Origin: a virus
Lineage: Duplodnaviria > Heunggongvirae > Uroviricota > Caudoviricetes
Virus record (IMG/VR): IMGVR_UViG_2537561977_000015
Location: 1 to 9,638 of that record
Reading direction: 5' to 3' (one strand)
Length of the DNA: 9,638 bases
Shown here: positions 2,034 through 9,638 of the stretch, one piece after another
How the letters are laid out: every line of letters begins with the position of its first letter
Numbering within the stretch: the first letter of the stretch is position 1
Translations under genes and position numbers: made by a program
The notes under the pieces: model-generated
The model's input: only the letters and a program-made list of their open reading frames with translations
Told to the model about the DNA's origin: nothing
Database searches by the model: none

Positions 2034-2260
2034 ACACATAAAAATGACCAGCCATATCATCAGCGCCATTCTAACCCTTGTGTTTATTGAGATAGGCGTA
2101 ATAGCGATTTATTTTTTCGCAAGTTAACGAGACATGAAGAACGCTTTATTGATCTCAATATTGAGTACGTCGCCGCTTATGCCAAAGGGCTTTTTCCGAC
2201 TGCCATTGGTGCGGTTCTCATAGCGTTTGTTATTTGGCTCATTGAGTAGAGGCACGAAAA

Positions 2261-2671
2261 ATGAATAAGCAGCAAAAAAGCAACACCAATAACGCCCAGC
2301 TCCTAGTGCAACCGGAGGATAAAAGCCTACAGGAACAGCTTAAGTACCTAGATGAGCTGAAACACGACATTATCATCTTTCCGGACAATATTTGCGCTAT
2401 TGGACTGCAAGTATCCCCATTGCAACTTGCCAATACATATCGCCACCTGATCTCTGGGCAAATGCAAAACACGACAGATAACGAAGTGCCAGAAGAGGCG
2501 CGAAAGCACTTTCGTGATTCACTTGGCACAGAAGGGATCGCCATAAAGATACACCCTATTGCAGTTCACATTTCTTTTTATGGCACTCAATCCCCCGAAG
2601 AGGCAATCAAAAACATAATCAAAAGCCAAAACAAGATGACTGAGATAAAACGGGGCGTAGCAGCCCCGTAG
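2261..2671 (+). CDS. Hypothetical protein (136 aa), AT-rich accessory block
   Basis: ORF with a GAGG SD 8-9 nt upstream of the ATG. No recognisable motif. Its 3' end overlaps a hairpin that is shared with the convergent minus-strand gene. Confidence 0.55.
   Translation: MNKQQKSNTNNAQLLVQPEDKSLQEQLKYLDELKHDIIIFPDNICAIGLQVSPLQLANTYRHLISGQMQNTTDNEVPEEARKHFRDSLGTEGIAIKIHPIAVHISFYGTQSPEEAIKNIIKSQNKMTEIKRGVAAP
2650..2669 (-). terminator. Hairpin ACGGGGC-GTAGCA-GCCCCGT; candidate intrinsic terminator for the leftward small gene (U-run on the minus strand only)
   Basis: 7-bp GC-rich stem with a 6-nt loop read from the sequence. On the minus strand it is followed by TTTT. On the plus strand no T-run follows. 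It lies 8 bp past the stop of the minus-strand gene 2678..2857. Confidence 0.4.
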
Positions 2672-2677
2672 AGACTC

Positions 2678-2857
2678 TCAGAAAATAGTGACACTGAACC
2701 CAACAGGATACTTAGTGTTGCTTTCGTTGAGAATTTTGAACGCCAAATCGCGGATTGTTGCAGCAGGATGTTCCTGACTTACCGCCTGAACAGGTGTTTG
2801 CTCAAGGGTATCGAGAAGTTTTTTCATTTGTTCAATGACTTCTTCATGTGAATTCAT
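2678..2857 (-). CDS. Hypothetical small protein (59 aa) encoded opposite to the surrounding early genes
   Basis: Strong SD (AAGGAG) 6 nt upstream of the ATG at 2855-2857 on the minus strand. The ORF track's longer 82-aa version has an N-terminal extension (MVVCCAAFGQ...) that looks non-coding, so I trimmed it to this start. Convergent with 2261..2671 and divergent from 2989..3339. Confidence 0.55.
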   Translation of the reverse strand: MNSHEEVIEQMKKLLDTLEQTPVQAVSQEHPAATIRDLAFKILNESNTKYPVGFSVTIF

Positions 2858-2988
2858 ATGAACTCCTTTTTCAGTGGTGGTTATATCAATAGCTTTCTGG
2901 CCGAAGGCTGCACAACAAACTACCACAAAACCATGCGCCGGGCATGGCTAAAACCCGGCACTAATTCACAACAGCAGTAGGGTCTTGC

Positions 2989-3339
2989 ATGAAACAACAA
3001 AGCAATTCTTCACAACGGCGCTTCCGCAACGGCGCAGAACGCCATGCTAACCGTTTCGCTACCAGTGCATCACGTAGCAGCTCTCGCTACAGCCTGAGCG
3101 AAACACACGCAACACCGGATGGCCACGCTGTAAAACAAATCGGCGAGCACACCTGGCTGATTGAGAAAGCTGGAATCGTGGTTCACAGGTGCCCCCGCAA
3201 CCCATTTACCGGAAACCGCATTTTTGCACTGAGCAGCGGCGACAATCAGTTCGGACAGGATTTCACATTGTACGAAGCGCTACGCACGGTTGACCGCTTA
3301 ATTGCAGGACGTAGTTTTCAGCATCCACGGGGGAATTAA
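2989..3339 (+). CDS. Hypothetical protein (116 aa), Ser/Arg-rich N-terminus
   Basis: ORF at the start of a tightly packed plus-strand gene string. The SD is weak. No recognisable motif. Confidence 0.5.
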   Translation: MKQQSNSSQRRFRNGAERHANRFATSASRSSSRYSLSETHATPDGHAVKQIGEHTWLIEKAGIVVHRCPRNPFTGNRIFALSSGDNQFGQDFTLYEALRTVDRLIAGRSFQHPRGN

Positions 3340-3342
3340 CCA

Positions 3343-3597
3343 ATGGCAACAACGACAAAAAACATGGTAGAGATAGCCTCGGCCTACACTATTATCATGC
3401 ACCGGCTCATAGATAATAATGCCCGTGATGCATTAAATACGATAAAACCTTTGTCGGAAGCAAAAAGCGATATTATCAGCGGATTAAAGTCACTACAGGA
3501 ATGCGCACGCTATGCAGGTGATCACGCCGCATACATGACCATTAACGATACAATTGAGCGCATTGAATCAGGTAAACCATTAAGAGCTTTTGTTTAA
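3343..3597 (+). CDS. Hypothetical protein (84 aa)
   Basis: Begins 4 nt after the previous stop. GGGGGAA SD-like sequence upstream. AT-rich composition matching its neighbours. Confidence 0.55.
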   Translation: MATTTKNMVEIASAYTIIMHRLIDNNARDALNTIKPLSEAKSDIISGLKSLQECARYAGDHAAYMTINDTIERIESGKPLRAFV

Positions 3598-3617
3598 TTG
3601 TTTTCTGGGGAAATGCA

Positions 3618-3860
3618 ATGGGCAAAGAATATAAAACTCTCATTAACAAAGCACTTGAGCGTTTTTATTTTCGCTTAAACACATCAGGGGTCCACGCCGA
3701 ACACGCAGCCCATGATTCATTAGCAAGAGCAATCAGAAGTCTTTATGACGTACCCTTTTATGCTGACGATTTGGATGCAATTAACGAGCTTTCCGAACTC
3801 GTCTGCGCCGCAGAATGCGGAGAGCGCATTGAACCATATAAACTGGGGAATATCGTATGA
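3618..3860 (+). CDS. Hypothetical protein (80 aa)
   Basis: GGGGAAA SD-like sequence upstream of the ATG. Its stop overlaps the start of the next small ORF (ATGA). Confidence 0.55.
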   Translation: MGKEYKTLINKALERFYFRLNTSGVHAEHAAHDSLARAIRSLYDVPFYADDLDAINELSELVCAAECGERIEPYKLGNIV

Positions 3861-3970
3861 GTATATTTATATCATGGATTGTTCTGATTATTTCGGTGGC
3901 CTGCGCAATCGGGATTATGCGAATTATTAATTCAGTAAAAAAGATTGAACGCTTTTTCACTGAAGAATAA
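3857..3970 (+). CDS. Small membrane peptide (37 aa: MSIFISWIVLIISVACAIGIMRIINSVKKIERFFTEE), one predicted transmembrane helix plus a charged tail
   Basis: Not in the ORF track because it is below the size cutoff. Found by reading: ATG at 3857 overlaps the upstream TGA stop (ATGA coupling), GGGGAA SD-like sequence 7-8 nt upstream, hydrophobic N-terminal 20 residues followed by a basic/acidic tail, in-frame stop TAA at 3968-3970. Confidence 0.45.
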   Translation: MSIFISWIVLIISVACAIGIMRIINSVKKIERFFTEE

Positions 3971-4063
3971 TCGCGCAAATAAGATTTCAGGTTAAATAAG
4001 AAAATGTAAAAACAATCCGCATTCGCGGAGGTATTCGCACAAGTAAATAACGGAGATACAAAA

Positions 4064-4474
4064 ATGCTCGAAAAAGAAGAAGGTATTATCAAAGCACTGA
4101 AAGAAATTTCAAAGACAGAAAACGAAGTAGCGAAAAAAGCCGTGGCAAATGCTCATATGAACGTCGCAACCCACACACTGATAGTCGCAAGAGTCACGGC
4201 AGAAGCAGCCGAAATTATCGCAAAACAGAATGCTGAACTGGCAGTTCTCAGAACACAACCAGTCACCGGACTGGATTTGTCTAACACCGGACGCCTTATT
4301 TACACAATTGATTCGGAGCTAAAGCCATACATCATTCTCGCCGGAGTGCAGGATAAATACCTGATTACCCTTTACCCCATAAAAGAATCAGAAATCATGA
4401 AAGACCTCCGCCTGATTGAGCGCACTCACGCTGTATTTACTGATGCCGCACAACGCGCCGTATTAAACGCATAA
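4064..4474 (+). CDS. Hypothetical protein (136 aa)
   Basis: ORF with a GGAG SD about 9 nt upstream. Last gene of the AT-rich block. No recognisable motif. Confidence 0.55.
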   Translation: MLEKEEGIIKALKEISKTENEVAKKAVANAHMNVATHTLIVARVTAEAAEIIAKQNAELAVLRTQPVTGLDLSNTGRLIYTIDSELKPYIILAGVQDKYLITLYPIKESEIMKDLRLIERTHAVFTDAAQRAVLNA

Positions 4475-4481
4475 ACCCGTC

Positions 4482-4820
4482 ATGAAAAAACTGAAATATC
4501 TCGTGGCCCTGTTGGGCCACATCGCCAGGACAGCAACAGGATTTTACTTCCGCCCGTTCAACAAAGTATGGGACGAACACCTACAACAAATCTTGGACGA
4601 AGGTGTTCTTGAGTCAACTAACAAACATGCCGTCTTTTGGCTCTACGGCGACATATACGAAATCTGGATCAGCAACCGCTGGTTTGCGTACGGGTTCCTG
4701 TTCTGCCTGAACGGACAATTTGTAGCCCCGGCAGATGCGTACCGCCCACGTTTCCGCACCATGTACCGCCTGCATCAAATGGTACAGGCCAGCAAGGCAA
4801 AGGAGATGGGGAATGTTTAG
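4482..4820 (+). CDS. Hypothetical protein (112 aa), aromatic-rich
   Basis: ORF beginning 7 nt after the previous stop. Composition shifts to the higher GC of the downstream replication module. Its stop overlaps the next gene's start region. Confidence 0.5.
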   Translation: MKKLKYLVALLGHIARTATGFYFRPFNKVWDEHLQQILDEGVLESTNKHAVFWLYGDIYEIWISNRWFAYGFLFCLNGQFVAPADAYRPRFRTMYRLHQMVQASKAKEMGNV

Positions 4821-5019
4821 AGAATTTACCGTCATTCGTTTTACTGCCAAGGGGCGCGAGTATGAAGTTGATGAACGCCTGGTAGACCTGGACAGAACCG
4901 CGCCGTCACGCACCGAACAAGACACTCATCACATCTATCTCACTGACGGCACTTACTTCTGCGCCACCAACGTGGTGCAGGTGAATCTTATCAGACAGGT
5001 ACAGGAGTCACGCAGATGA
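4813..5019 (+). CDS. Hypothetical protein (68 aa)
   Basis: The ORF track extends this to 4735, but the ATG at 4813 has a canonical AAGGAG SD 8 nt upstream and the upstream extension (MRTAHVSAPCTACIK...) looks non-coding. Its stop overlaps the next start (ATGA). Confidence 0.55.
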   Translation: MFREFTVIRFTAKGREYEVDERLVDLDRTAPSRTEQDTHHIYLTDGTYFCATNVVQVNLIRQVQESRR

Positions 5020-5315
5020 CCATTCTGGACTACATCGCTGCTAATCCGGGTTGTAGCGGTGGAGAAATCGCCGCTGCACTGAATACCCCAACCACAACCA
5101 TTAATGCGGAGTTACGCCGTCTCTGGCGCAGCGGTTCAGTCATAAGAAAAGAGCGCAAAACAGGCGGTCGCTTTTCTTATCAGGTAAACCCGATGCCGTT
5201 CGGGTGTAGCAACCCACTAACCCAGATGTTCAACCAGTTACTGAAGGAAGCCAGAGCATGCACAAAGCCTTTGAACGATGGATGCGCCAGCGCTATGGCA
5301 ACCGCTACGACCTGA
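5016..5315 (+). CDS. Putative winged-helix DNA-binding protein (99 aa)
   Basis: AGGAG SD 8 nt upstream. The N-terminal 60 residues (ILDYIAANPGCSGGEIAAALNTPTTTINAELRRLWRSGSVIRKERKTGGRFSYQV) have the helix-turn-helix plus beta-hairpin wing pattern of MarR/ArsR-type winged helices. The low-complexity C-terminal tail overlaps the next ORF. Confidence 0.5.
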   Translation: MTILDYIAANPGCSGGEIAAALNTPTTTINAELRRLWRSGSVIRKERKTGGRFSYQVNPMPFGCSNPLTQMFNQLLKEARACTKPLNDGCASAMATATT

Positions 5316-5404
5316 CGAAAGATACCGATGGCTACTACTGCCGCGAAGTTGTGAAACGAATGTTTGAAGTGTGGCGCTACTGCCGCAGCTTATACGTTGA
5401 ATAA
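5258..5404 (+). CDS. Hypothetical small protein (48 aa: MHKAFERWMRQRYGNRYDLTKDTDGYYCREVVKRMFEVWRYCRSLYVE)
   Basis: Not in the ORF track. ATG at 5258 with a GGAAG SD-like sequence 9 nt upstream and codon usage typical of the surrounding genes. Overlaps the 3' tail of 5016..5315 in another frame. Stop TAA at 5402-5404. Confidence 0.4.
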   Translation: MHKAFERWMRQRYGNRYDLTKDTDGYYCREVVKRMFEVWRYCRSLYVE

Positions 5405-5476
5405 AACAGGTCATCGCCGATGCGCATACAAAAAAACCGCTTGCCATGCCGCAATCAGCCAGGTTACATTTCCGCT

Positions 5477-5551
5477 GCACCTCATAAAACGGGTGCCGGG
5501 ATTTCCACCCCGCTGACAAACGTAGCGCACAACCGCGCCAGCGGTTTTTTT
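5477..5551 (+). ncRNA. Candidate small RNA (about 75 nt) ending at an intrinsic terminator; speculative
   Basis: Possible sigma70 promoter (-35 TTGCCA at 5441..5446, 18-nt spacer, -10 TACATT at 5465..5470) followed by a segment with internal pairing (GGGTG/CACCC) and the terminator at 5531..5551. No protein-like ORF in this stretch. The 5' end is a guess. Confidence 0.2.
5531..5551 (+). terminator. Rho-independent terminator: AACCGC-GCCA-GCGGTT followed by a T-run
   Basis: 6-bp stem with a GCCA loop, followed by 7 consecutive T on the plus strand (5545..5551). It lies about 130 nt downstream of the last gene of the preceding operon. Confidence 0.6.
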
Positions 5552-5730
5552 GTGCGTACTGTATCGCCACGTCTTTTTCGCACACGAATTATGGTGGGGC
5601 GTACGGGGCCGACTTCGGTCGGGCCGGGTTCTGCGTTTGCCGGTTGTGGAAACCCTGTACGTCTCACCACCCCGAGTTTTCCACCTCTGGATGGTGAGTT
5701 TTCAAAACTTACACACGTAGAGGCCACATC

Positions 5731-5961
5731 ATGGCAAACCGCAAACAACAGCGCGCATACGCTGCGCGTCGTCACATCCAGACTGAAATCAACCGCAGAC
5801 TTTTCCGCGCATCACGCGTCGCGCAAATCATGCACATCAATATGCTGCATGAGCGCAGCCACGCACTATCGAACACCTATTGCGCCTCTGTTTTCAGCTA
5901 TCTGGCGGATGATCTGCACGAGCTTCAGCAGCTCATTCAGCAGCAAAACAAACTCCATTAA
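5731..5961 (+). CDS. Hypothetical small basic protein (76 aa), first gene after the structured intergenic region
   Basis: AGAGG SD 8 nt upstream of the ATG. Arg/Gln-rich helical-looking protein. Position and size resemble the small accessory proteins that precede the replication gene in P2-like phages, but I cannot assign a family from sequence. Confidence 0.55.
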   Translation: MANRKQQRAYAARRHIQTEINRRLFRASRVAQIMHINMLHERSHALSNTYCASVFSYLADDLHELQQLIQQQNKLH

Positions 5962-6033
5962 TTCCTGTTCCGGGCCTTTCCTGCACCTTGCGGCGGGAGG
6001 CCTTCGCACATCTGTAACAAGAGGATTGCCGCA

Positions 6034-6399
6034 ATGATTCTCGCCAACGACTTTCTTGAATACCTGCTCAACACAGAACGTGATCTTGCCGCTCGCGTGC
6101 GTGATCGTTATGACATGTACCTGAAATCCCTGCCTGTACCGCAGCTCGCTGACGGAAAAATTGTTATTGATGGCCGCTACATGATTGACAGCCATGAGGG
6201 AAATTACAGGCTTTACCGCATTGAAGGCGGCACCCCGTCCGTTATTGGCATTTACCAGCGCCCATCCTCTGCAATCGTCGATGTGATTGCCGACAGCATC
6301 CGCATCACACATCGCCATGCCGACACAGAAGACACCGTGCTGGAAATTCAGCGGCTGGCTACCGTCTGCCGCGACACCCTGAATGGCATGACGAAGTAA
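6034..6399 (+). CDS. Hypothetical protein (121 aa) immediately upstream of the replication initiator
   Basis: AAGAGGA SD 9 nt upstream. Compact ORF whose stop lies 6 nt before the next ATG. No recognisable motif. Confidence 0.55.
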   Translation: MILANDFLEYLLNTERDLAARVRDRYDMYLKSLPVPQLADGKIVIDGRYMIDSHEGNYRLYRIEGGTPSVIGIYQRPSSAIVDVIADSIRITHRHADTEDTVLEIQRLATVCRDTLNGMTK

Positions 6400-6405
6400 A
6401 TCACT

Positions 6406-6852
6406 ATGGCGGCAGAGTACATCAGGGACTGGCAACAACCGCGCCACGCAGTGGGGCGTGAAGGAACGGGGATCCCCGCTCCTGAATCCGCGCTTTCCTC
6501 CTGGCTGGATGCCTACCGGGCAGAGAACGAGCGCCGCCAGGAAATGGCTGATGCGGCGTTCTCCGCCACGACGCTGGGCAACCTGATTAATAAAAGCCTG
6601 GATGCACAGGAAAAACAGGACAAAACCATCACACTGGCAGGAGACGCCAGAAAACAGGCACGCGGCGCGGTGGATGAAGCCATGGCCTCGCTGCGCCTGC
6701 TGCCGTCCTATCTGCGCGATCCGCTTATTCGCCGCCTCTCTTTCCTGCGCAAAAACAGGAAGCCGATCGTCAGAAAGGCAAAAAGAGCCGACAGCAGAAC
6801 GCTATGCACGCGGAACCCTGCGCAAAATATTCGAACGTCTGGACCGCACTGA
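6406..6852 (+). CDS. Probable N-terminal part of the gene-A-like replication initiator, in a different frame from the main ORF (frame disruption near 6780)
   Basis: Protein-like translation from 6406 to about 6790, with a degenerate tail after that. The overlapping frame of 6602..9226 becomes protein-like only from about 6790. An A5 run sits at the junction (6780..6784). Confidence 0.45.
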   Translation: MAAEYIRDWQQPRHAVGREGTGIPAPESALSSWLDAYRAENERRQEMADAAFSATTLGNLINKSLDAQEKQDKTITLAGDARKQARGAVDEAMASLRLLPSYLRDPLIRRLSFLRKNRKPIVRKAKRADSRTLCTRNPAQNIRTSGPH

Positions 6853-9226
6853 CAGACACTGGCTGACACCGGGTTATCGCTCCCTTGCCGGACGTGAACG
6901 CCTGGATGATTTGCTTTACCTGCCACAGCTCAACAAGCACCAGATACAGACGCTGGCCACCATGACAGCGGCGATGTTCAGCAGCACCTTCGAAACACTC
7001 TGTGATGGCTTTGGTGCCAGAGATGGCGAGCTGACCATGGAGGTGGCGCTGAAGGCATATCAGATGCTGGCACGCATGGCGTTACATCTGCACACCATGC
7101 CGCCGCATTATGACGCACTGACAACAGACAAGGACCGGAGGAACGCACCGGATACGGAACTGCTGCCGGGCGCAATTCTTCGCCTGACCTGTGCGGAATG
7201 GTGGAAACGCAAACTGTGGCTGTTACGTTGCGAGTGGAGAGAAGAACAACTCCGCGCCGCCTGTCTGGTTTCCAGAAAAACATCACCCTATCTGAGCCAG
7301 GACGCGTTAAGCGCGTTTCGCGCACAGCGCGAGAAAACACGCGATTTCCTGAAAAGTTTCATGCTGGAAAATGAAGACGGGTTCACGATTGATCTCGAGA
7401 CGGTGTATTACGCGGGAGTAAGTAACCCGGTTCACCGTAAGGCAGAAATGATGGCCACCATGAAGGGACTGGAACTTCTGGCCGAAGCCCGTGGCGACAG
7501 AGCGGTGTTTCTGACTGTCACCTGCCCGTCAAAATACCACGCAACAACGGAGAACGGTCATCCGAACCCCAAATGGAACGGGGCCACCATGCGCGACTCC
7601 AGCGATTACCTGGTTAACACGTTTTTTGCGGCGGTCCGCAAAAAACTGAACCGCGACGGTCTGCGCTGGTATGGCATCCGCACGGTGGAGCCTCACCATG
7701 ACGGCACTGTGCACTGGCATATGATGGTCTTTGCACATCCGGACGAGATTGAAACCATCGTGTCCCACGTCTGCGATATTGCCATTCAGGAAGACCGCCA
7801 CGAGCTGGGCGATGACATAACTCCGCGTTTTAAGGCGGAGTACGTAGACGGCTCAAAAGGCACACCAACCAGCTACATCGCCACCTACATCGGAAAGAAC
7901 CTGGACAGCCGCGCCGTGGATGGCATCGACCCGAAAACGGGCAAGCCACGCGTTGACCACGAAACCGGAAAATCAATGGCCGAGAGCGTGGAACGCGCCA
8001 TCGGCTGGGCGCGCCTTCACCGGGTCCGCCAGTTCCAGTTCTTTGGTATCCCCTCCCGTCAGGTGTGGCGTGAACTGCGCCGCCTTGCCAGCCAGATGGC
8101 ACGCAACCCGGAAGGCCCGCAACGGCTGAAGGATGACGCAATGGACGCGGTACTCGCTGCCGCTGATGCCGGATGTTTTGCCACCTACATTGAGAAACAG
8201 GGTGGCGTACTTGTTCCACGCAAAGACTACCTGATTCGCACCGCCTACGACCTCGCAGATGAGCTGAACGATTACGGTGAACAGAGCGTACAGATTTACG
8301 GGATCTGGTCGCCGCTCATTGGGGAGTCTTCCCGCGTATGCACGCATCCGGATAACTGGAAGCTGGTAAGACGCAAACCGGAAGCGGAAGACAGCGCCCG
8401 CGAAAATGGTTTTGACCTTCAGGGCGGCCCTGCCGCCCCTTGGACTCGTGGCAATAACTGTCCCCGTGTACAGGAAACGAACAACAACGGGACAGAACAG
8501 CCGGAAGAACGGCCAGCACCGTGGCCGCAGCTCCCTGACGGCGTTGAAGTGAACGAATGGATGCGCTCACTGAAACGGCACGAACGCCGGGCGCTGATGC
8601 GTTCGCTTCGTGACAAACAGGCAAAAAACAGCAGTGATGAAATGCAGAACTGGACGCAGAGCCGCAAACAGCCGCGACCTTTGCCTGATAACCACGAATT
8701 ACTCGCTAAAGAATGGCGGGAGTCTGCTGAATCTCTCGGCATGCATATCGGTGAACAACAGATGCAGCACTTGTTACGGGGCGGCAGTCTGTACGTTGAC
8801 GGCAGCATCATTGCACCGCAGGGATTTAAAATTGTACGCAAACCGGATACCCGCCCGGACAGCCGAATCACGCAACTCTGGCAACGCCTGAGCCGTAATC
8901 ACGGCGTAAGCAGCACGGAGATCCGTCATAACCCTGTCGCCAGCTATCTGGAACAGCTGGGGACATCAGACCCCGAAGCAGCCGCACGCCTGGCATCCAT
9001 ACTTCAGCAGGACCAGAACACCATGAAAACACCCGTTACCGTGCTTTCTGACATGCTGCGCGCCATCCGCGACGCAGAGCACGCACAGAGAATCAGTGAA
9101 ACCACTGAACGCGCCCGCCGCAAAGCAGACCTGCTGCGGGGTGGCCTGACCAGTGGAAACAAAAAACAGACAGAAACGGGACTCACGAATCCCGTAAATG
9201 AGCAAAAAACGCGCAGCGATATATGA
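6602..9226 (+). CDS. Rolling-circle replication initiator, P2 gene A-like HUH replication endonuclease (coordinates are those of the longest ORF; true 5' end uncertain)
   Basis: HUH metal-binding motif (TVHWHMMVF, nt 7712..7720 encode H-W-H) followed about 50 residues later by the paired catalytic tyrosines (TSYIATYIGKN, Tyr codons at 7874 and 7886). This is the signature arrangement of phiX174/P2 gpA-type Rep proteins. Other segments (LTVTCPSKYH, GIRTVEPHHDGT) resemble P2 gpA as I recall it. The first 180 nt of this frame look non-coding. Confidence 0.85.
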   Translation: MHRKNRTKPSHWQETPENRHAARWMKPWPRCACCRPICAIRLFAASLSCAKTGSRSSERQKEPTAERYARGTLRKIFERLDRTDRHWLTPGYRSLAGRERLDDLLYLPQLNKHQIQTLATMTAAMFSSTFETLCDGFGARDGELTMEVALKAYQMLARMALHLHTMPPHYDALTTDKDRRNAPDTELLPGAILRLTCAEWWKRKLWLLRCEWREEQLRAACLVSRKTSPYLSQDALSAFRAQREKTRDFLKSFMLENEDGFTIDLETVYYAGVSNPVHRKAEMMATMKGLELLAEARGDRAVFLTVTCPSKYHATTENGHPNPKWNGATMRDSSDYLVNTFFAAVRKKLNRDGLRWYGIRTVEPHHDGTVHWHMMVFAHPDEIETIVSHVCDIAIQEDRHELGDDITPRFKAEYVDGSKGTPTSYIATYIGKNLDSRAVDGIDPKTGKPRVDHETGKSMAESVERAIGWARLHRVRQFQFFGIPSRQVWRELRRLASQMARNPEGPQRLKDDAMDAVLAAADAGCFATYIEKQGGVLVPRKDYLIRTAYDLADELNDYGEQSVQIYGIWSPLIGESSRVCTHPDNWKLVRRKPEAEDSARENGFDLQGGPAAPWTRGNNCPRVQETNNNGTEQPEERPAPWPQLPDGVEVNEWMRSLKRHERRALMRSLRDKQAKNSSDEMQNWTQSRKQPRPLPDNHELLAKEWRESAESLGMHIGEQQMQHLLRGGSLYVDGSIIAPQGFKIVRKPDTRPDSRITQLWQRLSRNHGVSSTEIRHNPVASYLEQLGTSDPEAAARLASILQQDQNTMKTPVTVLSDMLRAIRDAEHAQRISETTERARRKADLLRGGLTSGNKKQTETGLTNPVNEQKTRSDI

Positions 9227-9270
9227 AGCGCGCACAAAACAGGCAAAAACGGGATTTCAGAATCCCGTAA
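9163..9270. repeat. Two copies of a 35-bp direct repeat (9163..9197 and 9236..9270, 29/35 identical), each containing the inverted repeat ACGGGA...TCCCGT
   Basis: Read directly from the sequence. Copy 1 lies inside the last 20 codons of the replication gene, copy 2 in the gap before the ParM-like gene. The stems are conserved while the loops differ at 4 positions. Confidence 0.6.
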
Positions 9271-9302
9271 TCGATTAATTAATCAACATAAGGAAAAGCG
9301 AC

Positions 9303-9638
9303 ATGAAAATTTGTATCGACGACGGCTCCACCAACATCAAGCTGGCATGGACTGAGAACGGCGAACGCCGCAACGCCATCAGCCCGAACAGCTTCAAGTC
9401 GGAATGGTCTGCGCCGTTCGGTGGCATGCAGCCCGCGAACTACATGCTTGATGGCGTGCGCTATGGTTTTGATCCGGTCAGCGATCGCTTTGTCCAGACA
9501 ACCGACACGCAATACCAATACAGCGATGTAAATGTCATTGCCATTCATCACGCGCTGGTCAAATCAGGCATCACGCCACAGGAGGTGGATGTGGTTGTCA
9601 CCCTGCCACTGAGCGAGTATTTCGACACAAACGCACAG
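9303..9638 (+). CDS. parM: ParM/StbA-family actin-like segregation ATPase, N-terminal 112 codons (truncated by window end)
   Basis: AAGGA SD 9 nt upstream of the ATG. The N-terminus MKICIDDGSTNIKLAW...ISPNSFK...YSDVNVIAIHHAL...VDVVVTLPLSEY closely matches the phosphate-1 motif and N-terminal region of plasmid R1 ParM (MLVFIDDGSTNIKLQW...ISPNSFK...YSDVNVVAVHHAL...) as I recall it. Confidence 0.75.
   Translation, partial: MKICIDDGSTNIKLAWTENGERRNAISPNSFKSEWSAPFGGMQPANYMLDGVRYGFDPVSDRFVQTTDTQYQYSDVNVIAIHHALVKSGITPQEVDVVVTLPLSEYFDTNAQ

Follow-up and report, generated by a model that had tools for sequence, protein, structure and literature searches.

Backbone genes, exchangeable cargo and a leftward gene with a conserved leader in the early region of a P88-type prophage

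The temperate phages 186 (cII, fil, dhr and orf79-84) and P2 (orf78 and orf80-83) carry, between cox or apl and A, small and mostly non-essential genes that are transcribed rightward from the early promoter. According to the record annotations, the 186 early operon contains fil and dhr, whose products act on host division and replication, as well as an internal leftward promoter, pE. Morons, which are known from lambdoid phages, are autonomous promoter-gene-terminator units located between phage operon genes. P2-like prophages also swap genes rapidly at predictable positions, namely the GpA-GpQ (tin/old), Z/fun and integrase-GpA defence hotspots. The hotspot between integrase and GpA is a minor one that accounts for 8% of P2 defence systems (PMC13586616). 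Here we describe a block of small genes at positions 2034-4480 of a 9638-base stretch of Caudoviricetes DNA (virus record IMGVR_UViG_2537561977_000015; the whole stretch is referred to as the window) and, within this block, a leftward gene, g3, that is preceded by a conserved leader.

The block has the position, gene size and rightward orientation of its 186 and P2 equivalents, but none of its proteins is similar to theirs, including 186 CII, Fil and Dhr. BLASTP and phmmer comparisons of the block proteins with P2 and 186 early proteins returned no significant match, the best being DUF4754 against P2 B with an E-value of 0.008 in a 22-sequence database. P2 B has no counterpart here, the DUF4761, DUF4754 and transmembrane (TM) peptide genes of the P88 type constitute a different gene set, and no block protein matches the products of P2 orf78 or orf80-83, in agreement with an initial annotation of the window in which the layout was judged to depart from the P2 cox-B-A backbone. 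The g3 gene is like a moron in that it lies between operon genes and against the operon, is absent from most relatives, and has its own terminator and Shine-Dalgarno (SD) sequence and a predicted promoter. In contrast to morons, its control region is strictly conserved and is shared by seven or more unrelated cargo genes across several phage genera, for which reason the leader appears to behave as a fixed expression platform with exchangeable cargo, and the g3-type unit is often accompanied by a conserved + strand gene, g2. The block shares with the P2-like defence hotspots the rapid swapping of genes at a predictable position; unlike theirs, its cargo matches no known or candidate-defence model and is very small (29-160 aa).

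The block within a P88-type early operon

With moderate confidence, we read the block as the proximal part of the early operon, which runs rightward (Pe-cox...A), in a P88-like prophage of the P2 family, mosaic in its make-up and accompanied by a separate leftward g3 unit. The + strand genes would be co-transcribed with cox from the early promoter upon induction or infection; they are presumed to be expressed with cox because neither an internal promoter nor a + strand terminator was found. By analogy with Fil and Dhr of 186, these genes would probably encode small early modulators of the host.

Judged by DNA identity and gene order, the window is a P2-family (Peduoviridae) prophage of the P88 type, genus Xuanwuvirus. 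Its replication region (5420-9638) is 91-97% identical at the DNA level to P88, P88_4B11, Shae_phiSM and 520873, with gene order kept, and PV468777 has the same gene order and 91-97% identity over this region. The gpA region alone is 93-97% identical to P88-type phages with synteny kept, and the DUF4761 and DUF4754-TM segments of the block are 85-92% identical to the same four phages. The order typical of the P2 family is found in the window: integrase and repressor leftward, followed by cox ... A rightward, with more small genes between the block and gpA.

Eight small genes make up the block, seven on the + strand (one of them frameshifted) and one on the − strand, and independent calls on near-identical contigs gave the same set. 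The genes, along with the first gene beyond the block, are listed below; the slots are sites of gene exchange that are discussed further on.

2044-2249, + strand: gene for a two-TM membrane protein (2-TM gene), 68 aa, phrog_14475, placed by alignment with P88_4B11
2261-2671, + strand: g2, 136 aa, gene call; slot-1 cassette
2678-2857, − strand: g3, 59 aa, gene call; leftward cargo
2989-3339, + strand: DUF4761 protein, 116 aa, pI 11, PF15958
3343-3597, + strand: g5, 84 aa, gene call; minority slot-2 allele
3618-3860, + strand: DUF4754 protein, 80 aa, acidic, PF15946
3857-3970, + strand: single-TM peptide, 37 aa, recognized by hydrophobicity
4064-4474, + strand: g8, 136 aa, phrog_9338; slot-3 accessory gene
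4482-4820, + strand: g9, 112 aa, phrog_16975; second slot-3 accessory gene, just beyond the block

The initial annotation had counted at least seven small genes, placed one of them on the opposite strand and noted a membrane peptide; all of this is borne out, with the 2-TM gene product as a second membrane protein. The start of the TM peptide gene overlaps the stop of the DUF4754 gene. The 2-TM gene is disrupted in the window, where one nucleotide is missing from a T-run near 2115 and a 27-aa open reading frame (ORF; 2044-2127) is left; it is unbroken (68 aa) in the near-identical contigs L008-L011.

The g3 unit and its conserved leader

The predicted signals make g3 a leftward transcription unit in its own right, equipped with an SD, a terminator and a predicted promoter. 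The features of this unit, all on the − strand, are as follows.

2858-2962, − strand: leader of the leftward cargo, from the alignment of cassette variants
2961-2921, − strand: conserved element GTGCCGGGTTTTAGCCATGCCCGGCGCATGGTTTTGTGGTA, ~45 nt, with its core identical in 28 loci
2961-2953 with 2943-2935, − strand: H1a, a GC-rich 9-bp hairpin, from folding
2947-2942 with 2936-2931, − strand: H1b, an alternative 6-bp hairpin with a U-tract (2930-2927) directly after it
2925-2917, − strand: TGnTAnnnT, extended −10-like, with a predicted start near 2910
Between TGnTAnnnT and the SD, − strand: H2, a variable hairpin recognized by covariation
2867-2863, − strand: SD of g3, AGGAG, from the sequence
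2650-2669, − strand: intrinsic terminator of g3, ACGGGGC-loop-GCCCCGU followed by UUUAUCUC, from the terminator scan

The leader core is 100% identical in 28 distinct loci, with seven additional metagenome hits. One of these loci is the distant P2-like contig L099, in which g2 and g3 are only 29% and 47% identical to those of the window, and the identity of the core despite this divergence supports g3 as an autonomous unit. The element is rare, with 17 of 5426 complete E. coli genomes containing it, along with four phage records, SEN4 and SEN5. Within TGnTAnnnT, the final T is invariant in all 16 leader variants while the three preceding bases, which fall within the hexamer, vary; for this reason we read the motif as an extended −10. 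If transcription began near 2910, the mRNA would carry H2 at its 5′ end. The H2 sequence differs between cassette types with its pairing kept: compensatory changes occur in 5 of the 10 pairs, one pair is seen as CG, GC, UA and GU, and 85.5% of the cells are paired compared with at most 46% when the partner is slid. We infer that the leader would consist of a dyad, a leftward promoter downstream of it and a hairpin that stabilizes the 5′ end, that g3 would be expressed leftward from the predicted extended −10 promoter, and that its transcript would end at the gene's own terminator, which lies within the 3′ end of g2 and has its U-tract on the − strand only. Being thus uncoupled from the early operon, g3 would likely be a prophage-expressed moron. 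As regards the moron traits, g2 and g3 lie between operon genes and are absent from 80 of the 80 comparator loci described below, the terminator was found (2669-2650), and the invariant TGnTAnnnT is the promoter feature that was seen.

Several results weigh against this assignment. A standard scan identified no sigma-70 site for g3, so that the promoter is one of consensus; the folding energy of H2 is split between the strands, with 8 variants favouring each; and the leader of the window folds slightly better on the + strand when compared with shuffled sequences (z of −2.9 versus −1.9). An Rfam cmscan of both strands at E-values up to 1 left the leader unmatched, its hits elsewhere in the window being isrK, C4 and a chance internal ribosome entry site.

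A serious rival, which we consider possible but doubtful, is that the element is a cis-acting − strand RNA attenuator transcribed from further upstream, in which H1a would act as anti-terminator and H1b plus the U-tract as terminator. The two hairpins are mutually exclusive, having bases 2947-2935 in common, and UUUU is positioned directly after H1b. Moreover, two of the H1a pairs are U.G pairs that can form on the − strand only, H1 is 5-6 kcal/mol more stable on that strand in 15 of the 16 variants, and in many variants a GUGGUA...UACCAC pairing encloses H2. However, conservation starts sharply at GTGCC, upstream of which the sequences vary by phage group and contain no common promoter. H1a is far more stable than H1b, so termination would require an additional factor, and the invariant T at 2917 behind three variable bases is a better fit to a −10 hexamer.

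Behind the leader, at least seven unrelated types of cargo occur in diverse P2-like phages. Besides the g3 family, these types comprise 74-, 78- and 95-aa proteins, proteins of 155-160 aa in two kinds, and an acidic peptide of 29-39 aa with a two-TM protein of 155-159 aa encoded after it. The cargo start codon is always 65-82 nt past the leader core, and a comparable hairpin and T-run come after most of the other cargo genes. The cassette itself moves as a unit: it follows cox and the 2-TM gene in P88-like phages, lies in the repressor-cox gap in SEN5 and is placed past a DUF4754-like gene in others. Since other P2-like phages have the same leader ahead of seven or more unrelated cargo genes, we regard the site as a platform for cargo exchange.

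The family of the partner gene g2 is very small: an exhaustive HMMER search of 1.84 billion representatives yielded only 3 clusters, and there are 4 close homologues. No Pfam or PHROG entry matches g2. Divergent relatives of g2 (18-30% identity) are present at the same position in PV468777, L024/L025 and L099, and the family is alignable over its full length. Convergent g2/g3-like pairs are found in PV468777 (140 and 63 aa), in L024/L025/L061 (135-137 and 60 aa) and in L099 (156 and 58 aa). The g3 family (58-63 aa) has an invariant K-Y-P motif near the C-terminus in an alignment of nine members from five cassette types; g3 has no match in Pfam, the PHROGs of known function, PADLOC or the PDB.

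These pairs bear on a second alternative, in which g2 and g3 would be a cognate pair for toxin-antitoxin function or self-immunity, with g3 made by the prophage and then neutralized or activated by g2 from the early operon on induction. The two genes are convergent, with 3′ ends that abut or overlap; they occur together in cassette types A, B, C and F despite identities of 18-47%; and the C-terminal tail of the g2-like proteins varies with the cargo. We nonetheless find such a pairing unlikely. The same g2-like N-terminal part (~110 aa) is paired with three unrelated cargo genes (60, 78 and 155 aa), which places the exchange cuts in the leader and inside the g2 3′ end; L114, L116, L118 and SEN5 carry cargo but no g2-like gene; and domain searches of g2 and g3 identified no toxin or antitoxin domain.

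More tentatively, the invariant element and the variable 5′ hairpin might together form a dedicated, portable expression platform within the early operon of diverse P2-like phages, from which a rapidly changing set of very small orphan genes would be read counter to that operon. The products would be effectors expressed by the prophage, acting for example in the exclusion of competing phages or satellites or in control of the prophage's own early operon, and the GC-rich dyad would be a putative binding site for a conserved host or phage switch factor.

Backbone genes, exchange slots and composition

We compared the block with 87 loci, of which 7 were annotated phage loci and 80 were IMG/VR loci found through DUF4754, the search anchor of the set. 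Denominators vary in the list below as only loci reaching a given position were counted.

2-TM gene, + strand, 2044-2249: present in 18 of 80
g2 and g3, 2261-2671 (+ strand) and 2678-2857 (− strand): 0 of 80
DUF4761, + strand, 2989-3339: 83 of 83
g5, the 84-aa gene of the window in slot 2, + strand, 3343-3597: 1 of 83
92-aa P88 gp05-type gene, the other gene of slot 2: 82 of 83
DUF4754 (anchor), + strand, 3618-3860: 87 of 87, 75-94% identity
TM peptide, + strand, 3857-3970: 86 of 86, 81-97% identity
g8, + strand, 4064-4474: 46 of 86
g9, + strand, 4482-4820: 1 of 86, missing from the seven annotated phage loci
g10, the next gene: 86 of 86

In these comparisons, the block is a mosaic of a genus-level backbone (DUF4761, DUF4754 and TM peptide) and three exchange slots, with about half of it backbone and half swappable cargo as far as the alignments indicate. 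Slot 1, after cox, is occupied by the 2-TM gene and the rare g2(+)/g3(−) cassette with its conserved leader; slot 2 by the minority 84-aa allele, g5, which by position replaces the usual 92-aa gene and whose product has no sequence similarity to the gp05-type proteins; and slot 3 by g8, a member of a hypervariable family as aligned here, and then by g9 outside the block. The order of the backbone genes is constant in P88, P88_4B11, Shae_phiSM and other phages. In blastn alignments, mosaic breakpoints fall at approximately 2293, 2988, 3296, 3614, 4041 and 4474/4820, and the flanks of the g2/g3 insertion (2042-2293 and 2988-3296) are common to relatives. Counting against the backbone as stated, the comparators were picked by DUF4754 similarity, and the 100% presence of the neighbouring genes is consequently valid for this genus only.

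The view taken in the initial annotation, in which a single AT-rich accessory island gained by horizontal transfer makes up all of the block from cox to the replication module, is very unlikely in light of these data. Its GC content of 44% is indeed well below the 57% of gpA, its proteins have no P2 or 186 homologues, and all of the products are without a function by annotation. However, DUF4761, DUF4754 and the TM peptide are present in fixed order in every related locus that reaches them, and the breakpoints cut the block into at least six segments of different history. Nor does composition separate the two classes of genes. The GC content is 44.2% for the block, 50.6% for the window, 46.5% for integrase plus repressor, 52.6% for 4481-6400 and 57.3% for gpA, with a minimum of 38% at 3750-4200; the drop that had been noted is therefore substantial relative to gpA and only ~2 points relative to integrase and repressor, and DUF4761, inside the block, has 53%. 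The backbone is as AT-rich as the variable genes, also in P88 (GC fraction 0.42 for gp05, 0.465 for DUF4754 and 0.37 for the TM peptide gene), and composition is for this reason no marker of cargo. What had been called variable cargo is variable for g2/g3, g5, g8 and the 2-TM gene and is not for DUF4761, DUF4754 and the TM peptide, and conservation of the gene set across relatives, by which the island was to be judged, is observed at the level of Xuanwuvirus and not of the P2 family. Parts of the block match 1402 of the 5426 complete E. coli genomes.

That the leftward promoter is instead an establishment promoter for the repressor-integrase operon, like the CII-activated leftward pE within the early operon of 186, with g3 as a mere passenger, is highly improbable: the element does lie downstream of cox and face the repressor, but a strong terminator follows g3, most relatives must establish lysogeny without the element (17 genomes versus 1402 with parts of the block), and in several phages the element is far from the repressor, past a DUF4754-like gene.

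Several further observations concern the individual slots. The g5 cluster has 47 members, and its profile matches that of DUF4754 weakly (hhalign probability of 24.5%). A 22-nt direct repeat (86% identity) occurs at the 3′ ends of g5 (3556-3577) and DUF4754 (3822-3843) and encodes the similar C-terminal motifs ERIESGKP and ERIEPYKL. In distant P2-like phages (SEN5, which is L119, at 3864-4803; L101, L105 and L114), the gene order is DUF4761-like, small TM protein, Fil-like and DUF4754-like. By eye, the P88 gp05-type and SEN5_40 proteins have the motif G-F-x-I-K/R-T-R-x-G-E/A-L in common with 186 Dhr, a hint at a possible Dhr-like product of the usual slot-2 gene; BLAST gave this no support. 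The g8 homologues are 43-84% identical to the window copy; most of the full-length ones are exactly 136 aa, and they form mosaic types that vary chiefly within residues 1-45. Inside g8, a promoter-like site on the − strand (4112-4085; 10/12 matches) could yield an RNA of ~60 nt antisense to the g8 start. The terminator scan gave one other − strand feature, in the intergenic DNA 3′ of the TM peptide gene, which is conserved in P88 (3618-4041 aligns with P88 and relatives):

4016-4029, − strand: terminator-like hairpin UCCGC-GAAU-GCGGA (UCCGCGAAUGCGGA) followed by UUGUUUUUAC

Function searches and neighbouring genes

Scans of all block proteins with Pfam, PHROGs, NCBIfam and PADLOC matched only domains of unknown function and PHROGs of unknown function. 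PDB searches with g2, g8, DUF4761 and DUF4754 as single sequences, and with the g2 and g3 family profiles, found nothing, and two fold searches gave nothing usable. In the domain scans, only PF15958, PF15946 and the PHROGs of unknown function match, so that the description of these genes as being without recognizable motifs essentially stands. The Pfam matches themselves are strong, with 216.9 bits (cut-off 27) over model positions 1-99 of 105 for DUF4761 and 159.1 bits (cut-off 27; E-value of 3e-47) over positions 1-79 of 80 for DUF4754. DUF4761 is predicted to consist of a disordered basic N-terminal tail and a small β-sheet-plus-helix domain. The predicted g8 structure comprises an N-terminal helical hairpin, hypervariable between alleles, and a conserved small β domain (pLDDT 80), and its fold matches are generic helical ones only.

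Neither Pfam nor PADLOC matched the cargo proteins, and across the block proteins plus ten cargo proteins PADLOC gave no credible match, the best having E-values of 0.002-0.05 over short stretches. A SLATT-like appearance of the L114 and L116 cargo was not confirmed by Pfam or PADLOC. Pfam and PDB searches matched no anti-defence family. With respect to host takeover, exclusion and anti-defence, no database or fold match of the block proteins spoke for or against these functions. The literature searched does not mention DUF4761 or DUF4754, names Xuanwuvirus only in passing, and contains no description of the conserved leader or of the g2/g3 cassette.

The window is 100% identical to contig ADUP01000018.1 of NCBI assembly GCA_000188815.2; the recorded sources of the proteins that it encodes are Shigella sonnei, S. 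flexneri and E. coli, and dmsABC adjoins the prophage. The main genes flanking the block are listed below.

1-1008, − strand: integrase, gene call
1063-1410, − strand: helix-turn-helix (HTH) repressor, gene call
1512-2033, + strand: Cox, 173 aa, PF10743
From 6406, + strand: gpA replication endonuclease (Phage_GPA), Pfam

Cox is long here; the Pfam Cox domain covers residues 58-129 only, with charged N- and C-terminal extensions on either side. A long Cox is found in a minority of relatives (L001, L008-L012, L072, L084, L088 and L097), most others having 68-95 aa. In the window, gpA is interrupted: compared with P88 it lacks two single nucleotides, one of them in an A-run, at roughly 6690-6740 by alignment, and reads as two ORFs, 6406-6852 and 6602-9226. 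In the nearly identical contigs L009 and L010 (99.7-99.8% identity with three gaps overall), gpA is unbroken at 940 aa. Taken with the frameshifted 2-TM gene, the split gpA points to homopolymer errors in a draft assembly or to a decaying prophage.

Between the block and gpA, Rfam identified the Hfq-binding small RNA isrK at 5477-5551 (+ strand, 65.5 bits) and the C4 antisense RNA at 5587-5674 (+ strand, 79.2 bits), just upstream of a gene for a 'derepression protein' (5731-5961; PF25738). This group resembles the immI-like c4-antirepressor module of P1/P7, placed within a P2-type early operon. The 205-aa ORF at 5420-6037, for which relatives carry the label transcriptional regulator or ASH-like protein, overlaps isrK as well as C4 and is probably not a gene. 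The isrK RNA resembles the leader element of g3 (GTGCCGGGATTT) and is not complementary to it; its 5′ part (5477-5510) holds GGGTGCCGGGATTTCC, similar to the start of the leader at 2962-2945 (AGTGCCGGGTTTTAGCC; TGCCGGGATTTTTAGCC in the SEN5 variant). Pairing of the C4 or isrK RNA with the leader was considered and dropped, as the duplex energies were within about 1.4 to 2.5 standard deviations of those of shuffled sequences.

What we describe is ordinary in kind: an accessory region, half of it backbone, among the early genes of a prophage genus that is common. What the analysis adds is the division into backbone and cargo, the finding that AT-richness does not mark cargo, and a rare cargo platform with an invariant control element; as far as predicted signals and alignments go, what is new is g3 as an autonomous leftward unit and an upstream element that is identical in 28 loci. 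Should the cargo be inert, the outcome would be a cleaner map of an ordinary mosaic region and little else. Parts of this early block match roughly one in four complete E. coli genomes, and the backbone/cargo division indicates which genes to test for core as opposed to accessory early functions. Comparable gene lists at other phage hotspots have led to new defence and counter-defence genes. The leader provides an exact sequence handle, GCCGGGTTTTAGCCATGCCCGGCGCATGGTTTTGTGG, with which to retrieve unrelated orphan genes that selection repeatedly puts at one expression site, and, if the portable platform is real, it would define a compact new hotspot of prophage cargo with a common regulatory switch.

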